Below are positions 33,358 through 44,212 of a DNA stretch of 47,319 nt, piece by piece. A program made the position numbers and the translations under genes. The notes beneath the pieces are model-generated. The model was given only the letters and a program-made list of their open reading frames with translations, did not search any database and was not told the DNA's origin. This DNA is from a virus (Duplodnaviria > Caudoviricetes), in IMG/VR virus record IMGVR_UViG_3300044260_000040, positions 1 through 47,319 of that record; one strand, given 5' to 3'. Positions within the stretch are counted from its first letter, which is position 1; each line of letters begins with the position of its first letter.

Positions 33358-36335
33358 CCATGAGTGTTGACCCGCTCACGAGATGGCGCCTCAACATCAA
33401 AGGGATGGGGGGCGACAGCACTGGCGCCATCCCCTCCGAGGGCGCGCACTACCTCACGTTCAACGCGGCCACGGACCTGTGGACGCGCACGAGCGAGGGC
33501 ATCATCGCGTACGACTATGACATCGCCAACCTCGGCGGGGCAGGGACGGGCGGTCCCTACCGGGTCAACCCAGTCGTCGTCCCATTCGGTGACGACCACG
33601 ATACCGGCGGCTCGTTCTGGGAACTGAAGGAAGGCCCGCATCCGGGCTACCTCGTCAGCTTCTGGTCGAACAGCCTCGGCTACGGCGACATCACGGTCAC
33701 GAGCGACACGGCGTTCAACCGGGGCCCGGGCGAGACGCTGTTCACGCTGGAATACCCGGCCGCCCACCTGTGCGGCGCCAGCATGAACTACAATGCGGCT
33801 GGCGAGATGCACTTCACGATGCTGGTGGACGACCCCAACATCGCTCTCGTGCAGCCCAAGTTGACGCACTACAGCATCGACTTCTACATCAACGGCGATT
33901 GGGTCGAGGCGTTCGCCGGTCTCATCTGGGACATGGACGCGACCGACACCGAGGTCGTGTTCGAAGGCATCGACTACCTTGGCCTGCTGAACTACATACT
34001 GGACGAACGCTTCGACCCGAAGGCGCCCGACAAGGCTGCGCCGGACGGCTCCAAGTACGTGGACAAGTCCATCCACGACATCGTGGACGCGCTGCTCGAC
34101 TACGCCATCGCGCTGCCTGACTCACCCGTGAACTTCATCTCCGTGGGCGACATCGCCGCGATGGACGAGAAGGTGACTATCTTCTCCACCATGTCGCGCA
34201 TCCTGCCGTTCATCACGGACATGCTGAACAGCCACCGCGCTGGCACCGGCAAGTACACGCGCATCTATGTGAAGAAGACCGGCACGAACCAGTATCAGTT
34301 CACGGTCGATGACGACCCGGGCGTGCAGCAGACCGGGCTGCCAGTCGCCTACGGCGACCTCGCCAACGGCTACCGCATCATCAAGTTCGGCAAGAACTGG
34401 GCGTCCCGCGTCAGCGTCCTCGGGCGCTCGCGCGACGGCCTGCAGGTGTCCTACGAGCACAACGACTCGGGCGTAGACCAGAGCGTGTGGGGCCGCATCT
34501 CGCAGGACGCGCAGATGATTGAGCCCAAGGCTGGCTTCCTCGGGCCCAAGGTCAAGTCCGACGACACGAACGACCTGAAGCGGCGCGCACGGCAGGCCGC
34601 TCTCGACGCGTCGCGCCTCGGCCAGTCCGTGGGCATCGGCTTCAAGCTGGGCTCGTTCGCGCCGGAGGACGGCTGGGCGCTGCTCGACAGCCTGCCCATC
34701 GTCATCGAACACGGGGGCGCGCGTACAACGCAGTGGGCGAGCGACGTGTTCGGACAGGACACGGCCGCCGACCCGTCCGTTGTCAAGGCCAGCTTCTGGA
34801 CCATCGTCGGCTACCAGTGGGAGTCGTACGACGACGGGCACTGGATGAATACGCTGCTGCTGTTCCCGTCGGGTGGCGGTGATTTGCCGCAAGTCACCGT
34901 CACTCCGACCCTCAAGAACTTCGGTGAGACTGGCTGGCAGCCTAGCTACTATCCGAACCCTCACTCAGTCAGCCTTGCAGGCTTCACGGCCGCCGCAGGC
35001 GACACGATGTACGCCGTCCTGTTCCAGCGCGGGTCCGGTGCGACCATCGGGGCGGGCTCGGTCAGCGGCTTCACGCAGATTGGTACGACCGTCAAGGGAT
35101 ACGACGGCACGCAGTCGCCGCTCTCTGACGCGACGGCCGTGTCGCTCTGGTACAAGGTGGCTGCGGGCGGGGAGACGAGCATCGTCGTCAACGCCGACTC
35201 GCCGGGCGACCAAGTGTCCCTCCTGTGGGAAATCCACTCCGGCATCCCGGCAGCGGCCGTCCCGGTCTTCCACTCCGCGACCGGAACGATGGCGGCTGAC
35301 GGCAGCATGCACGACCTCATCACGGTCGCTGGCTCTGGCACGGGCTACATCTTCGGCGGCTGGGCGATGCAGCAGCCTGCGGGCTACGGCACGGGCGTGC
35401 GGTCTGCCTTCGACCACGACGCGTACCAGCCGCCGCTCTACGATGACCAAGAGCCGCGCCACCTGAAGTACGCTCTCACGAACGACACGCTGCCGCGCAC
35501 CATCCAAGGCCAGATGTGGGACAGCGGTGGCGTCAGCGCCGACAAGTGGGGCTGGGCGATGGCCGTTGCCACGGTCGGGTCTGTCGGGCCGCCCTACCCC
35601 ATCACGTCCTCGCCCGTGGTCCCGCGCACGCCCATCACTACGGGCGACGGTGCCCCCGCGTCGGACAACCCGCAGAACGTGAGCACGTACGTTGACCGCG
35701 TGACGGGCGACACGTACACGTGGAACGACAACACCGACTCGTGGGACGCGCCGGTCGCCGGGACCATCGACATCAAGGACTGGCCGCTCTCTGACGTGCT
35801 CGCGAAGGGCAACCTCGTGGGCGGCAACCTCATTGAGAGCGCGGCCGACGGGACATCAGGTGGCGGGACGCTGGAACTGGACGACGCGAGCGGAAGCTCG
35901 GCCGGGTCCGCGTTCCTGCTCGCGGGCGGCACGCCCGACGGTCTCGGCGGCGCGTTCGGCGCCTTCGGCGCTGACTCGGGCACGGGTGGCCGCGCCACCA
36001 TGCAGGGCGGGAACGCCTCGTCCGGCGGTGGCATGGGGGCATCCGTCCAGACGGACCCGGGTGCGTCCGGTGGCGTGCACGGCAAGGTCGCCATCACGAG
36101 CGACAACGACAGTGGCTCGGCGGCCGAGGTGCTGACCGCCAACGGCTCCGGCTACGCCACGTGGCAGGCCGTTGCGAACGGCATGCTGAAGTGGGGCACG
36201 GCCGACCCGTCCGCAGGCGCAGGCGTGGCGAGCGCCATCGGCAGCCTGTACATGCGCGACAACAGCGGCGCTGGCGAACTGTGGGTGAAGACCGCAGCGA
36301 GCAACACGTCGTGGACCAAGGTGACGCTGCCATGA
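33354..36335 (+). CDS. Tail hub / minor tail protein (siphoviral Gp37/Tal-like) with C-terminal receptor-binding extensions
   Basis: [29 protein letters not shown]...WGRI, W.L.D...I.I, IVGYQW; then beta-rich and Gly-rich domains. Confidence 0.65.
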
Positions 36336-37870
36336 CCGAACGCGAGCGCCTGCTCAAGCTGCTCAACGCGCAGCGCATCGCCGGACTGGACACGTCCGAC
36401 ACGCTGCGCAGGCTGTACGACTTGGACCAGCAGGCACAGACGCAACAGGTCATCGCCGCCATCCCGCAGCCCATCCCGGGGAGGCCCGGCGAGCCGGGTC
36501 CGGCTGGCCCGGTCGGACCCATGGGCCCAGAAGGCCCCACAGGGCCCACAGGAGCCACAGGAGCGGCCGGAAAGGACGGAGTGGCACCGGAGCCCACTCC
36601 GGGCCCTACCGGGCCTCTGGGGCCGTCTGGGGCGACAGGAGAGCAAGGTGAGCGAGGAGACCCGGGACCAACAGGACCAGCGGGACGAGATGGCCTACCG
36701 GGCATGGACGGCGCAACGGGTCCCACCGGACCCCGTGGCGCTGATGGCGCGACTGGTCCAACAGGACCGAAGGGCGACCCGGGAGAGGCCATCGCCGTCG
36801 CCGGAGACGGACGTAGCCACGTCATCGGACAGCCCTACGTCACCGGACTCCCCCGGCGCGTAGCCGAACTGGAGTTTCCCGGCGCCACGGTCGAGGGCTA
36901 CAAGAACGCGAAGGGACGGAACACCGCCCGCATCACTATCGTTGGAGGGACAGGCGATGGAGCCACAGGGCCGACCGGTCCTACAGGGCCGACCGGCCCG
37001 CAGGGTCCCGGTATCGGTGATACAGGCCCGACCGGACCTACCGGCCCGACGGGTCCGACTGGCGATACCGGACCGACTGGGAGCGGCGACCCCGGGCCCA
37101 CGGGTCCGACTGGCCCGACTGGCCCCGGCGGTGGCGACCCGGGCGCTACCGGTCCCACGGGCCCGACTGGAAGCGCAGGAACGGATGGCGGCACTGGACC
37201 TACCGGCCCTACAGGAACGGCTGGACCGACTGGTCCCACGGGGAGTGCCGGTCCTACCGGTTCGGCGGGTACTGCGGGCAGCAATGGAGCTACAGGACCC
37301 ACGGGGTCCGCTGGGGCGACGGGTCCGACCGGCTCTGCAGGCCCGACTGGGCCTACGGGAAGTGCCGGAACGAACGGCTCCGTGGGTCCGACTGGCCCTA
37401 CTGGCTCAGCGGGAGCGACGGGCCCGACAGGTTCCGCTGGAACTGCTGGAGGGGTGGGACCCACAGGACCTACAGGAAGCGCTGGAGCGACAGGACCAAC
37501 TGGACCTACAGCCTCATTTCTGCATCAGGTAGTTGTCGGCTTCGACGGCCTCGGCGCCGCTCTCGTGCCGGGCGCCATTCAGGACGTGGTTGTCCAGTAC
37601 GCCGGGACCATCCAGTCGGTCATGCTCCTCGCTGACCAGACCGGCAGCGTCTCGGTGGGCATCTGGAAGGATGTGTACGCGAACTTCCCGCCGACCATCG
37701 CGGACTCCATCGTGGCATCGGCGCCGCCTACGCTGTCTAGCGCGGTCAAGAGTGAGGACAGCACGCTGACAGGGTGGACGACGGCACTCGCGGCAGGCGA
37801 CGTGCTGCGCTTCTATCTCACGTCATGCGCCGACATCACGAAACTGCTTCTCGTGCTAACATACCTGTGA
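36332..37870 (+). CDS. Collagen-like fibre protein (GxT triplets) with C-terminal globular domain
   Basis: Two long Gly-X-Y tracts dominated by GPT/GAT/GSA. Confidence 0.9.
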
Positions 37871-37883
37871 AGGGAGTCCCCTG

Positions 37884-38249
37884 ATGGCGAACGACTATGA
37901 TGACACTGCCAAGGACGCGATGCTCGACGCGCTTGGCGCCCTGATGACAAGGGTGGCGCTCCACACTGGCGACCCGGGCGCTGCCAACACGGCATCCAAC
38001 GAGCTTACTGGCGGGTCTCCCGCCTACGCGCGCAAGGCCATCGCATGGGGCTCCGCTTCTGGCGGCATCATCGCGGCGTCGAGCGCGCCGGTCTTCGATG
38101 TCCCCGCGTCCACGACGGTCTCGTGGCTCAGCTTCTGGAACACTGCCGGAACTGTCCGGTATGCCAAGAAGAACATCACGGACGAGGTGTTCGGTGCTCA
38201 AGGAACCTACACTCTCAGTGCTGCCGACTTCGACCTCAACAACGCCTGA
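37884..38249 (+). CDS. Small virion fibre-associated protein (HTGDPG family)
   Basis: VALHTGDPG, NE.TGG..AYARKAI.W, FDVP motifs common in tail gene regions. Confidence 0.75.
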   Translation: MANDYDDTAKDAMLDALGALMTRVALHTGDPGAANTASNELTGGSPAYARKAIAWGSASGGIIAASSAPVFDVPASTTVSWLSFWNTAGTVRYAKKNITDEVFGAQGTYTLSAADFDLNNA

Positions 38250-38391
38250 GACGACGTTTGAGGAGCTTGTCCGGCTTCGGCTGGACGAGCTTGACAGGAA
38301 GCTGGAGCGGCTGCTTGAGATGACGTGCCCGGTTTGCGGACCGGCGCTGGTCGCGCAAATCCACCCCAAGGTGGAGGAGCATGGCAGCTAA
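38218..38391 (+). CDS. Small coiled-coil/CxxC protein (start uncertain)
   Basis: FEELVRLRLDELDRKLERLLEMTCPVCG; fills the gap before the fibre gene. Confidence 0.4.
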   Translation: MLPTSTSTTPETTFEELVRLRLDELDRKLERLLEMTCPVCGPALVAQIHPKVEEHGS

Positions 38392-41086
38392 CCCCGGTGT
38401 CATCGTTGCGTATGGCGCAGCTACAGCGCCGACGGGGTGGCTTCTCTGCGACGGCTCGGCCGTCTCACAAGCCACCTACGCCGCCCTGTACGCAGCCATC
38501 GGGACGGACTTCGGGCCAGACACGGGCGGCAACTTCACGCTGCCCGACTACCGGGGGCGCTTCGCTCTAGGCAAGTCCGCGACGGGCACGGGCTCGACCG
38601 TCGGTGAGACGGGTGGCGCACTCGACCACACGCATACCGGCCCCTCGCATACCCACGCTGTGGACCAGCCTGCGGACCATACGGCGCACACGGTCACGCA
38701 GCCGTCCTCGCACGGCACGCTGACGCATACCGGCGCGGCAATCGCGAACCACTCGCTCATGTCGCACACGGGCGCAGTCGTGGCCGCCCACTCCATCACC
38801 GAGGCATCTGCGCACTCGGACCACGCCTCTGGTGGAGCGCACACACACGACGGCCACGTCAGCGGCACCCGAAACCCAAGCGCCAACCCCGGCTTCTTCA
38901 CCGCGCCGACCGGGGCGCATAGCTCGGACGGCGGCCATACACACGATGCGCACAGCGCGCATACGGGCACGACCATCGACTCCGGCGCCGCTCACTCGGT
39001 GACGCAGGCAGCGGACCACTCGGCCGACACGCACACCATCTCGGCGCAGGCTACCTCCCACGGCACGCTCACGCACTCAGGCATGACGGTCACTGGCGCG
39101 CACTCGCACACGGGCATGGCGACGCAGGCAGGCGGGACGGCAGCCAGCGGTGGGGCGAACCCGCCGTTCCAAGTCGTGACCTTCATCATCGCCGTCGGCA
39201 CGACCGAGATACCAGTCGGCGCCATCAGCGACTTCGGCGGCACGAGCGCCCCGACTGGGCACATCATCTGCGACGGCTCGTCTTACAACACGACGACCGA
39301 TGCCGACCTGTTCGCTGTCATCGGGTACAACTTCGGCGGCTCTGGCGCAAACTTCAACGTGCCCGACCTGCGCGACCGCCACCCGCTCGGCAAGGCAGCA
39401 GCCGGGACTGGCTCGACTATCGGGGCGACCGGTGGCGCGGTGAACCACGTTCACGCTGGCCCGTCGCATACGCATACCGTGACGCAGGCCGATGCGCACG
39501 GCTCGCATACCATCGGTCAGGCGTCGAGCCACGGCACGCTGACGCATACAGGAACGACGGTCTCCGACCACGCAGCCCTGTCGCACTCCGGCTTGGCGCT
39601 TGGCAACCATACGGTCGGGCAGCCCGCCACGCACTCGACACACGCCACGAACGCGACACACACACACAACTCCCACACGAACGTCAGCAAGTACGGCAAC
39701 GGCACCGACAATGCAGGCTGGATGCACAGCCCGACTACGCACTCGGGCGATGGCGCGCACACACACGATGCTCACCCGGCGCACACGGGGCAGGCGCTCG
39801 ACGCGCACAGCGTCACAGCGCAGAACTCCAACCACGCCGCGCAATCGCATAGCCTGCTCATCACAGAGGCGTCGTCGCACGGCACGCTGAACCACACGGG
39901 CGCGGACCTTGACGCGCACTCCGCCCACTCGGGCGGGGCGACGAGCGCGGGCGGGACGGGCAACACGAGCGCTGGAGAGGCGCCGTACCTGACCGTCAAC
40001 TTCATCATCAAGGCGCACGAGGAGCCGACGCCTATCGGTTCCGGCTTCATGCTCGGCAGCATGGCCGTTCCCTCGCTGGCGCTGGCGTGTGACGGAGCGT
40101 CGTATCTGCGGGTCGATTACCCGTACCTGTTCGCCGTCATCGGGACGGCCTTCGGGGCGGCCGACAGCGACCACTTCAACGTGCCCGATATGCGCGGTCG
40201 CATCCCGCGCGGCAAGAGCGCATCTACCGCCCTGAACGACTCGGGCGGCGCGCGCGACCACACGCACACTGGTCCGCTCCATAGCCACGGCGTGACACAG
40301 CCGTCTGCCCACTCCGACCACACGCCGACGCAACCGACCAGCCACGGCACGCTGACCCACAGCGGCTTCGCCTTGTCAGACCACGCCGCCCTGAGCCACT
40401 CGGGGCTGACCATCGCGAACCACACGCCGACTCAGGCTGGCCTGCACGGCACGCACTCCACGGACGGCGCGCATACCCACGATGCGCATACGGCACAGAA
40501 CAAGATGGATGCTGGCTCGACCAACTACCTGAAGGCGAGCACGCATAGCAGCGACGGCGGCCATACGCACGACGCGCACTCCGCGCATACGGGCTTCGCG
40601 GTCAACGCGCACAGCATCACGTCGGCAGGCTCGGACCACGCTGCGCGCTCACATACGGTCTCGGCGCAGCCAGACAGCCACGGCACGCTCACGCATAGCG
40701 GCTTCGCCGTGGATGCGCACTCCGCGCACAGCGGCTTCGCCACGTACGACGACGGCAACGGCACGATGGGCGCGGCCAACCCGGCCTACATCACCGTCAA
40801 CTACGCCATCTGGGCCATCGGCTTCGACCGCAGCGGCACGTCCTCGGGGACTGGCGGCGGCGTCGTGACCATCACGCAGACCACGAGCCGGGAGCCCAGT
40901 GAGACGTTCACTGGCGGTGGCGTCGCCAGCATCACGCAGACCACGGACCGCCAGCCCAGTGAGGACATGACCGGGGGCGGCGTCCTCGGTTACACTGGTG
41001 CCAAGGGTGGGACAGGGACGGTGCACCTGTCCGACGGCGGCGGGACCGGCATCTCAGGCACGACTACGTTCGGGTGGGCAGCATGA
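38381..41086 (+). CDS. Tail fibre with three tandem collar + His-rich needle modules
   Basis: Three collar motifs (CDG.......LF/Y.AIG..FG....F..PD.R.R...G), each closed by P(F/Y)..V.(F/Y)(I/A)I; about 28 His per module. Confidence 0.9.
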   Translation: MAANPGVIVAYGAATAPTGWLLCDGSAVSQATYAALYAAIGTDFGPDTGGNFTLPDYRGRFALGKSATGTGSTVGETGGALDHTHTGPSHTHAVDQPADHTAHTVTQPSSHGTLTHTGAAIANHSLMSHTGAVVAAHSITEASAHSDHASGGAHTHDGHVSGTRNPSANPGFFTAPTGAHSSDGGHTHDAHSAHTGTTIDSGAAHSVTQAADHSADTHTISAQATSHGTLTHSGMTVTGAHSHTGMATQAGGTAASGGANPPFQVVTFIIAVGTTEIPVGAISDFGGTSAPTGHIICDGSSYNTTTDADLFAVIGYNFGGSGANFNVPDLRDRHPLGKAAAGTGSTIGATGGAVNHVHAGPSHTHTVTQADAHGSHTIGQASSHGTLTHTGTTVSDHAALSHSGLALGNHTVGQPATHSTHATNATHTHNSHTNVSKYGNGTDNAGWMHSPTTHSGDGAHTHDAHPAHTGQALDAHSVTAQNSNHAAQSHSLLITEASSHGTLNHTGADLDAHSAHSGGATSAGGTGNTSAGEAPYLTVNFIIKAHEEPTPIGSGFMLGSMAVPSLALACDGASYLRVDYPYLFAVIGTAFGAADSDHFNVPDMRGRIPRGKSASTALNDSGGARDHTHTGPLHSHGVTQPSAHSDHTPTQPTSHGTLTHSGFALSDHAALSHSGLTIANHTPTQAGLHGTHSTDGAHTHDAHTAQNKMDAGSTNYLKASTHSSDGGHTHDAHSAHTGFAVNAHSITSAGSDHAARSHTVSAQPDSHGTLTHSGFAVDAHSAHSGFATYDDGNGTMGAANPAYITVNYAIWAIGFDRSGTSSGTGGGVVTITQTTSREPSETFTGGGVASITQTTDRQPSEDMTGGGVLGYTGAKGGTGTVHLSDGGGTGISGTTTFGWAA

Positions 41087-42126
41087 CCTACGGACTCGTG
41101 ATGATTGCCAAGGACGAGGCGGCGGGCATCCTTGGCACGCTGGAGACTCTTCGCCCGTTCATCTCGTACTGGATTGTCTGCGACACGGGCTCTACGGACG
41201 GCACGCAAGACCTCATCCGCGAGTACCTGAAGGACATCCCCGGCAAGCTGTATCAGGACAAGTGGGTCAACTTCGGGCACAACCGCTCGCTCGCTCTCGC
41301 GCGCGCGTACAAGGCACGTGAGCGCGTGGACTGGTGGCTGGCGTCCGACGCCGACATGCACTGGACCATCGACCCGACGTTCACGCCGCCGCAGGTAGAG
41401 TCGCTGAGCCTCAAGATGGGCGCGGGCAGCGGCTTCGAATGGCGCCTGCCGCTGGTGCTGCGGGCGGACATCGAATGGAAGTCCGTCGGCGCGGTGCACG
41501 AGTACACGACACGCATGGACGGGCAGAAGCACGTGTCGCTCGCGACGGACAAGCTGAGCGTCATGTACCAAGACCGCAGCGACCCGGCCAAGACAGCGTG
41601 GCAGTTGGGCATGCTGCGCGAGGAGATGGAGAAGGACCCCGACAACAGCCGGACCGTCTTCTACGCGGCGCAGTGCTCGCGCGAGCTAGGCGCGTACGCG
41701 GATGCGCGCGCCTTGTACGCGCGTAGGGCGCAGATGGGCGGGTACGAGCAGGAGCGCTGGTACGCGATGTACTGGGCGGCTCAGTTGGAGGAGACGCCGG
41801 ACGCGCGCCTGCTTGCGCTCATCGCCTGCTGGGAAGCGCGCCCTGCCCGGCTGGAACCGCTGTGCTTGGCCGCGAGAGAGATGAACGCACGCGGCTGGCA
41901 CCATGCTGCCTATGCCCTGCTCAACCGTCCCATCCAGCCCACGGACGACGTGTTCTTCGTGCACACGACCGTCTGGGAATGGGGCATCGACTTTGAGAAG
42001 CACATCGCAGCGTGGTGGGTCGGCAAGCGCAAAGAGTCTGCGGACCTTGGGCGCAAGCTCCTGAAGCGCAAAGACCTGCCGGACCACATTCGGCTCGCCA
42101 TCGAAGCCAACCTTAAGTACACGTGA
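41083..42126 (+). CDS. Glycosyltransferase family 2 with TPR C-terminus
   Basis: MIAKDE, CDTGSTDGT, W.NFG.NR, DAD, GAVHEY, R.VFY.AQ. Confidence 0.92.
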   Translation: MTYGLVMIAKDEAAGILGTLETLRPFISYWIVCDTGSTDGTQDLIREYLKDIPGKLYQDKWVNFGHNRSLALARAYKARERVDWWLASDADMHWTIDPTFTPPQVESLSLKMGAGSGFEWRLPLVLRADIEWKSVGAVHEYTTRMDGQKHVSLATDKLSVMYQDRSDPAKTAWQLGMLREEMEKDPDNSRTVFYAAQCSRELGAYADARALYARRAQMGGYEQERWYAMYWAAQLEETPDARLLALIACWEARPARLEPLCLAAREMNARGWHHAAYALLNRPIQPTDDVFFVHTTVWEWGIDFEKHIAAWWVGKRKESADLGRKLLKRKDLPDHIRLAIEANLKYT

Positions 42127-42463: not shown

Positions 42464-42828
42464 ATATCACCTTCGACTGGGCCGACTTCTCCGCCCCCCT
42501 TGACCCGGCGGTCCTCGTCGCTGCTATTCTCCTCGGTTGCATGCTCGGCGCTGTGGTGGCGTTCAGCGATGGGTCGCGACGGCGACGGCTCAGTACCAAC
42601 CACTTCATCTGGATGACGGGCGCAGGCGTGGTATTCTACATCCCTCTCAGCATCATCCGCGCATTCGAAGGCTCGCCCGTGTGGGAGCGGTTCCTCGCGA
42701 CCCTGCCACTCTGGATGCTGTTCGAACTGGGGATGATGCTGGGCAACAGATACATGACGCGCGGGGACCGCACGGCATCTGCGGCAGAGCGCAAGCAGTG
42801 GGACGACGAGGGGAAGAATGGTTCTTGA
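42460..42828 (+). CDS. 3-TM membrane protein, putative holin
   Basis: Three hydrophobic segments, charged C-terminus, overlaps the endolysin start. Confidence 0.6.
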   Translation: MNITFDWADFSAPLDPAVLVAAILLGCMLGAVVAFSDGSRRRRLSTNHFIWMTGAGVVFYIPLSIIRAFEGSPVWERFLATLPLWMLFELGMMLGNRYMTRGDRTASAAERKQWDDEGKNGS

Positions 42829-44212
42829 GGGAGTCGATGTCTCCGTCTTCAACGGACTCTGGAGCGGGAAGGAACGACCCGCTTTCGCCATCGTGCGCGC
42901 GTGCTACGGCACGGGCAAGGATGCGAAGTACGACCTGCACGTCGCACGCTTCAAGTCGCTCGGCATCCTGACAGGAGCGTACGCCTTCGGCATCAACATG
43001 AACGGCACCGCTCAGGCGCGTGCCTTCCTGACCATCGCCAAGAACGCGGCCTTCATCGCGCTGGACTTGGAGACCGAGGCAGCCAAGCCGCGCATGACGG
43101 ACGAGCAGGCCAAGGCGTTCATCGCTGAGTGCCACCGGCAGGGCCGCAAGGTCGGGCTGTACCACAGCCGCAGTGGCTTCCCCCTCACGCTCGGGCAGGA
43201 CTGGAACTGGGTGGCCGACTATCGTGGACCGGCGTACAAGCCGAACATCCCGTTCGCCATCTGGCAGTGGCAGGGCAGCCCGCTCGACCGCAACCACTTC
43301 TACGGCACGAAGGCGCAGTTGGTCGCGCTCGGAGCGCCGTACGGCGCGCCCGTTACCCCTCCGCCGCCCCCGCCTGTCCAGACCGGCAACCCATATCCCA
43401 TCGGGTCGATTGAGTCGGTCCAGTGGTATCACGACCACGGCTTCATCTCGCAGGGCGGCGTGTGGGTGAAGGTGTCCACTCCACCTCCTGCTCCCACGCC
43501 CACCACGCCCCCGCCTGCACCGGTCCCGGCAGCGCCGCCCATCCCCACGACGCCTACCTCCGTGGGCGCGAACGTGGGTCAGGTGACGTACGCCCTGCCG
43601 CGCATGGTCGTGCTCGCGGGCCTGCAGGCGCTGGACCTCGGGCCGACGAACGGGCCTGTCTACGTCCTCGTGCACGGCGGGCCCGTCCCGCTTGGCAACG
43701 CGGCCATGCTACAGGACCTCGCGCAGCGGCTCGCCAATCGCGGCGCTCGCGTGTTCTGCATCGACTATCGCTCGGACACGTGGCAGAACGCGGTCGCTGA
43801 TGTGACCGCAGCCGTGGCCGACGTGAAGCGCATCATCCCGGCGCGCGTGACGCTCGTCTCGCACAGCTATGGTGGCTTCCCGGCGGCCATCGCGTTCTTC
43901 CAGAACGCGGCAGCCGACGCCTACGTGGCCGTCAACGCCATCTGCTCGACCCCTGCGGTGAGCGAGAACAGCCGGGCGGGTGCGCCCGACATCTTCGAAC
44001 TGACGAAGCTGCGGCCGGGAGCGCCGGTCAGCGTGGTCGAGGGGATGACGATGCCCTATCCCGCGACCGACGACAAGCCGGGCTTCGTGCGAGCGCTCAA
44101 TGCCGCCGGGCATCCCGGCTTCTGGACTCAGGGCCCGGGCGACCACACGGGCACGTTGTACACTAGTGAGACCGTCGGCACCATCATGCAGACGGCCGCG
44201 CTCATCAGGTGA
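42818..44212 (+). CDS. Endolysin: GH25 muramidase, Pro-rich linkers and alpha/beta-hydrolase domain
   Basis: GVDVS, GAYAF, ALDLE, WVADY, IWQW, LDRN; then LVHGG, IDYR, SHSYGG, GDH. Confidence 0.88.
   Translation: MVLEGVDVSVFNGLWSGKERPAFAIVRACYGTGKDAKYDLHVARFKSLGILTGAYAFGINMNGTAQARAFLTIAKNAAFIALDLETEAAKPRMTDEQAKAFIAECHRQGRKVGLYHSRSGFPLTLGQDWNWVADYRGPAYKPNIPFAIWQWQGSPLDRNHFYGTKAQLVALGAPYGAPVTPPPPPPVQTGNPYPIGSIESVQWYHDHGFISQGGVWVKVSTPPPAPTPTTPPPAPVPAAPPIPTTPTSVGANVGQVTYALPRMVVLAGLQALDLGPTNGPVYVLVHGGPVPLGNAAMLQDLAQRLANRGARVFCIDYRSDTWQNAVADVTAAVADVKRIIPARVTLVSHSYGGFPAAIAFFQNAAADAYVAVNAICSTPAVSENSRAGAPDIFELTKLRPGAPVSVVEGMTMPYPATDDKPGFVRALNAAGHPGFWTQGPGDHTGTLYTSETVGTIMQTAALIR

Follow-up and report, generated by a model that had tools for sequence, protein, structure and literature searches.

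A 901-aa phage protein was found to carry three diverged copies of a fiber-tip module, each consisting of a collar domain and a His-rich needle, and these fused modules probably fold intramolecularly to form a single six-stranded needle that resembles gp37 and is stapled by metal ions. Phage fiber tips are textbook symmetric homotrimers. The window, i.e., the whole stretch of 47,319 bp that was analyzed, is a complete phage record with direct terminal repeats and a GC content of 65.8%, and contains genes for a terminase, a portal, a major head protein, and an endolysin, the latter composed of a GH25 domain joined to an alpha/beta hydrolase domain (42818-44212). The triple collar+needle gene has no internal stops, and the motif GGAGGAG lies ahead of its start (Table 1).

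The Pfam Collar profile (PF07484) matched the protein three times above the cut-off (E 1.3e-50), and no other collar match was found anywhere in the complete genome. Module 1 shares 49% identity with each of the other two modules, and the linkers between the modules comprise ~7 residues. The first-pass annotation of this DNA had described three collar+needle modules, 28 His per module in a common register, and unrelated central loops. This description was borne out by the three PF07484 matches and three ladders, with 28, 29, and 28 His counted from the first to the last ladder His. In every module 16 of these precede the loop and 12 follow it, module 2 having an additional one (H449) within the loop, and the loop sequences of modules 1–3 are unrelated, as had been written. 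A closing P(F/Y)xxV motif had been ascribed to all three modules and was recovered in modules 1 and 2, but in module 3 Ala replaces Pro. The 88-aa C-terminal tail with its 20-residue repeat had been omitted. An assembly artefact or a recent tandem duplication was ruled out because of the divergence of the modules and because the same layout is shared by nine other proteins and by L091, an IMG/VR locus with a close triple needle relative that is truncated by the contig end.

Table 1 Features of the triple collar+needle gene and its upstream neighbors; positions refer to the window.
Feature	Position	Strand	Basis
Gp80/whisker-family gene (PF23140)	37884..38249	+	E 2e-08; matches to PDB 9c39, 9mt4, 8jou
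Small ORF, ~57 aa, start codon uncertain, CPVCG motif	38218..38391	+	Conserved directly 5' of the needle gene in relative L091
Triple collar+needle fiber gene, 901 aa (P0001)	38381..41086	+	ORF and domain matches
Collar domain 1 (PF07484)	38396..38563	+	Pfam; pLDDT 90-98
His ladder 1 (H83-H243, 28 His)	38627..39109	+	His count, spacing
Tip loop 1	38858-38917	+	Within His ladder 1
Closing strand of module 1, then short linker	39164..39190	+	Sequence and AlphaFold2 model
Collar domain 2	39212..39397	+	Domain match (PF07484 at 39218-39382)
His ladder 2 (H356-H516, 28 His and one in loop)	39446..39928	+	His count, spacing
Tip loop 2	39677-39739	+	Within His ladder 2
Closing strand of module 2	39983..40009	+	Sequence and AlphaFold2 model
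Collar domain 3	40031..40219	+	Domain match (PF07484 at 40049-40207)
His ladder 3 (H627-H783, 28 His)	40259..40729	+	His count, spacing
Tip loop 3	40490-40543	+	Within His ladder 3
Closing strand of module 3	40781..40810	+	Sequence and AlphaFold2 model
C-terminal tail with 20-residue repeat (about 40850-40969)	40820..41083	+	Repeat scan; putative "rope" anchor

The outbound His spacing (2-5-2-8-3-8-5-8-5-8-8-3-6-2-3) is identical in modules 1, 2, and 3, and 79 of 90 His were invariant across eight full-length relatives. Read from the loop outward, the outbound spacings 3, 8, 8, 5, 8, 5, 8, 3 are a mirror image of those on the return strand (r 0.96–0.99; exact permutation p about 0.002 per module for a stretch picked after inspection), and a position-matching version of this test was non-significant (p 0.13–0.91). 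As in gp37 and gp12, a PF07484 collar is present and the chain comes back to it through a closing strand, but the predicted metal sites are not generally made of HxH pairs as in gp37, whose six-stranded needle has seven iron sites of the di-His type according to the accessible text of two reports (PMC12609058, PMC6957217). Of the 14 His pairs that each module has in the shared register, 4 are HxH; the others are spaced by 3, 5, or 8 residues, and HxH pairing is impossible for a lone His between 8-residue gaps. The earlier proposal of up to about 14 metal sites holds as the best reading of the number; the pairs other than HxH would have to form across strands. On sequence grounds, the simplest reading of the mirrored spacing is four HxH and ten cross-strand sites, giving 14 predicted sites. 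HxxH pairs could instead chelate within one strand, which would alter the geometry and leave the count unchanged. The tip loops are 15–30% identical among relatives, compared with 45–49% at non-His strand positions.

In a tree of eight relatives the modules clustered by position (support 90/91 for m1, 95/93 for m2, and 99/94 for m3), which indicates that the triplication is old and has been kept. Changes in needle length were also coordinated. The ladder family comprises 7-, 9-, 14-, and 16-site versions, among which the length shifts in all three modules together and in both strands equally, and outbound minus return His equaled four in 43 of 45 ladder modules, across the 9/5, 11/7, 16/12, and 18/14 versions. 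P0008 has a duplicated His unit that adds four His (two outbound, two return) to every one of its three modules, each of which stays within its own position clade despite the addition, and the modules of P0009 and P0010 are without 7 outbound and 7 return His. These last two proteins have triple 7-site ladders and an extra region of ~170 aa inserted at the second collar. In the 46 triple-collar proteins among the matches listed, the two module periods, which range from 150 to 375 aa, differed by a median of 2.5 aa; none of 10,000 permutations was as close, the proteins not being independent of each other. Coordinated module lengths favor one in-register needle, since separate needles would not require matching, and local conversion between repeats could be the source of part of this pattern.

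Ten single-module relatives fell with m1 (five), m2 (three), and m3 (two, with small profile margins) in the tree; with these sequences added, m1 split into two groups and the support for m2 was 87/86. The two m3-type singles each end in a C-terminal tail, as does m3 of the 901-aa protein. Three pairs of singles were noted, each consisting of two different classes, with a shared contig presumed from equal listed sizes (12414, 6011, and 34743) and not from DNA. In other subfamilies, three-gene clusters of single-collar genes were found at 6 of 90 loci. A viral contig (L002:7302-11934) carries three adjacent genes of ~520 aa, each with one collar and 32–35 His, and this set is likely a three-gene heterotrimer of another subfamily. 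Such an arrangement is known from the virophage DSLV2, whose three diverged collar proteins form a heterotrimer according to co-purification and EM; in trees they sort by the position of their genes, comparable to the sorting of the modules of the 901-aa protein (accessible text of PMC12724248). The DSLV2 proteins differ in being encoded by three separate, unfused genes (196–247 aa), and a long His ladder is not described in that part of the report. The 901-aa protein has three position-specific, diverged subunits in one ORF, not in three separate adjacent genes, though split relatives exist. An asymmetric tip with three receptor loops had been put forward as a consequence of fusion. The three different loops are there, but fusion is not required for asymmetry, as three-gene heterotrimers also provide it (PMC12724248, in the text accessible, and the split relatives).

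The AlphaFold2 model computed with 64 sequences had a pTM of 0.54 and 249 residues with a pLDDT of at least 90, located in the collars, closing strands, and linkers. This monomer prediction, which the first-pass annotation had suggested as a check, was confident for the collars and closing strands (pLDDT 90–98) but not for the needles (<50). With 8 sequences, pLDDT was 30.5 and pTM 0.21. The rough expectation for the pTM is 0.20–0.28 with one placed collar, 0.30–0.37 with two, and 0.40–0.46 with three; as 0.54 is above these values, the collars appear to be placed relative to each other in the model. Their packing may be driven by likeness to solved trimers. The ESM Atlas returned generic collar clusters at 0.85 and a low-confidence model (pTM 0.39). 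Foldseek matched the AlphaFold2 model to the cyanophage A-1(L) fiber, T4 gp12, and T4 gp37, and among the 50 matches listed from viral models the highest query TM-score (0.23) belonged to the three-module protein Pas28.

The idea that the copy number of modules is always three, which had been raised for testing, was refuted. The His-ladder family, which comprises 25 of 356 stored proteins, contains 10 triple, 14 single, and one double protein (P0261), plus the triple at L091. For all collar proteins such a rule was ruled out by common doubles: 135 further representatives of any length had one (42), two (32), three (42), four (6), five (2), six (9), nine (one), or eleven (one) collars. Among 120 listed of 344 matches, 66 proteins had one collar, seven had two, 46 had three, and one had four, in a set restricted to 495–1577 aa that is biased because summed scores favor multi-domain proteins and the length window drops short doubles. 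Two of these seven doubles (P0018 and P0030, among the matches listed) were found on reading to have a degenerate middle collar. Where all closing strands could be located (in 30 of the 40 doubles and 53 of the 88 triples), adjacent needle pairs agreed within 10% in length in 17 of 30 cases for doubles vs 87 of 106 for triples, and the median linker was 28.5 vs 12 residues. Giant proteins of 2,400–4,800 aa (P0121, P0128, P0140, and P0155) have 6 to 11 collars, mostly grouped by three. No ladder member was present among the loci listed from a metagenome scan (at least 80 loci kept, of 424) or a species-genome scan (79 loci), and IMG/VR protein and pattern scans yielded one further ladder locus, L091. 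In GenBank phages 369 records matched, none across >80% of the query, and the 30 matches listed covered the collar region.

Several alternatives to a single one-chain needle were considered. Three full-length chains might trimerize, each module forming its own homotrimeric needle, to give a branched fiber with three specificities. The solved relatives that were found are without exception homotrimers built from a single type of chain, and two-collar proteins are common yet cannot make a one-chain trimer, both of which would suit such a fiber. We consider it very unlikely, as the short linkers and the lack of a trimeric shaft speak against branching, changes in length affect all three modules together where matching is not needed, and split relatives retain three distinct classes. 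Needles combining m1, m2, and m3 could also be built between chains by domain swapping, or after cleavage of the linkers. Coordinated lengths would be explained equally well in this manner as by the one-chain model, and the split forms show that the modules can be separate proteins; linkers this short, however, favor intrachain folding, and the AlphaFold2 model is confident across them, which makes assembly between chains or from cleaved pieces highly improbable. The single-chain pseudo-trimer proposed by the first-pass annotation is the best reading and gains comparative support from position clades, coupled lengths, and split classes as well as from the model, except in the needles, which lack a confident model; as judged from these comparative and predicted data, the evidence leans to one chain instead of the homotrimer of three identical chains that gp37 forms.

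A further possibility accepts one needle but assigns it a different task. The needle could serve mainly in metal capture or mineral binding or, an idea known from the literature, as a lure that offers iron to an uptake receptor of the host, with partial occupancy of its sites and not in loop-based receptor binding. The 84 ladder His fit this role, as does the one sequencing run listed for this DNA, a sediment metagenome that is probably the source sample. It is nevertheless very unlikely to be the main one, because variability is highest in the tip loops, as in receptor-binding tips, and because T4 needs its iron-binding His and tip residues for function (accessible text of PMC6957217).

The C-terminal tail may provide the attachment of the predicted one-chain needle. 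Repeats of ~19–22 residues were found in the tails of the 901-aa protein and of most relatives examined, and no clear repeat was detected in the short tails of P0004, P0005, and P0008. Among 16 window genes scanned, the tail repeat was the strongest outside low-complexity regions. A Gp80/whisker-family gene lies upstream of the needle gene. GP4, A1002, and Bas63 each have a single-chain rope surrounded by Gp80/whisker dimers, with the rope completing the beta-sandwich of the dimers, according to the accessible text of PMC13730344 and PMC12609058. By analogy, the tail and the Gp80/whisker gene may form a single-chain "rope" anchor, and such a rope, being a single chain, would account for the retention of just one tail. 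The likeness to GP4 fiber I, the Bas63 whisker, and the A1002 chain-like fiber consists in the Gp80-family neighbor and the single-chain tail of ~20-residue repeats; in the accessible descriptions, by contrast, the ropes are part of collar or nozzle proteins or are proteins of their own, and none ends in a metal needle. Comparison of a relative's repeat tail with solved structures gave low-complexity or unrelated matches and no solved rope. At the corresponding upstream place in L091, a 145-aa gene gave only a weak Gp80 lead (0.87); its Gp80 identity was not established, with no match in other searches.

Other genes surround the needle gene. The small CPVCG ORF is 52% identical to L091:7333-7578 and has a predicted helical stretch; a viral scan with it recovered L091 again and no other locus, and one might guess at a role as an assembly or metal chaperone. 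A collagen-repeat fiber gene, i.e., a second fiber type, lies closely upstream of the needle gene (36161-37870), and a glycosyltransferase-like gene lies immediately 3' (41074-42126). In L091 the needle relative follows a head module of another kind, read as a fusion of prohead protease and capsid, and this suggests that the fiber cassette moves between phage types.

Compared with known systems, the 901-aa protein shares with T4 gp37 (PDB 2XGF) and gp12 (1OCY) the collar, the out-and-back needle, the His-lined core, and the variable tip, with matches of the collar in sequence and fold. The T4 tips are symmetric and homotrimeric and have HxH sites, whereas the phage protein described here has three diverged modules in one chain, no N-terminal shaft, and 14 predicted sites, about twice the number of the T4 tip, 10 of which are not HxH. 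Three-module chains also exist in a cultured phage, as Pas28 and Pas29 of Actinoplanes phage phiAsp2 (NC_005885) contain three tandem modules with 4 HxH each, and Pas28 is a fold match to the AlphaFold2 model. Their needles, by contrast, are short, all-HxH, and placed inside larger multi-domain proteins, and the record annotates Pas29 as "possible receptor recognizing protein; contains HXHY motifs" with no mention of a pseudo-trimer for either protein. Five further proteins (P0021, P0025, P0028, P0056, and P0090) combine a prepilin N-terminus, mostly with fn3, and three collar modules, and P0021 and P0090 are from Saccharibacteria by source name. Judged by their domains, they are candidate pilus-tip adhesins built on a one-chain fiber tip. 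Such triple-collar proteins on the surface of Saccharibacteria and other cells resemble the phage protein in their tightly linked modules, matched needle length, and single chain, and differ in being cell-encoded and in having 1–5 HxH pairs per module; no description of them was found in the literature searched. Nor did this literature, which covered a minority of the subscription journals, contain an account of a single-chain triple collar fiber or of a cross-strand site made of an outbound and a return His from each of three modules. Already known are the three-gene heterotrimer (DSLV2, accessible text of PMC12724248) and fused short modules (Pas28/Pas29), whereas the long His ladder with its predicted cross-strand sites and the split-to-fused series are new here.

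In the proposed needle, the three collars would pack as a pseudo-trimer and each module would form a hairpin that runs outward and returns. Each of 14 levels would have a metal ion held by six His, two per module, via HxH pairs at four levels and via one outbound and one return His at ten, and the three different loops would form an asymmetric tip. Its predicted role is that of a receptor-binding fiber. The one C-terminal tail might thread Gp80/whisker subunits and in this way fix a monomeric needle to the virion; the 901-aa gene might be the fused form of a three-gene heterotrimer. Taken as a whole, the picture of a monomeric, 14-site receptor-binding needle with ten cross-strand sites, tuned in length by symmetric insertion in all three modules, carried on a Gp80-coated rope, and standing at the fused end of a series from homotrimer over three-gene heterotrimer to single chain, is a tentative one to which we give somewhat less than even chances.

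If true, the one-chain version would let the three tip loops evolve independently and would fit a one-chain anchor, and it would be a natural scaffold for studying the loops and the metal sites one by one. The family with 7, 9, 14, and 16 sites offers a direct test of the coupling between needle length and metal number, and it predicts a geometry of His-metal sites beyond HxH. The one-chain needle would also connect the virophage heterotrimer with the fused short-needle adhesins of small symbiotic cells.
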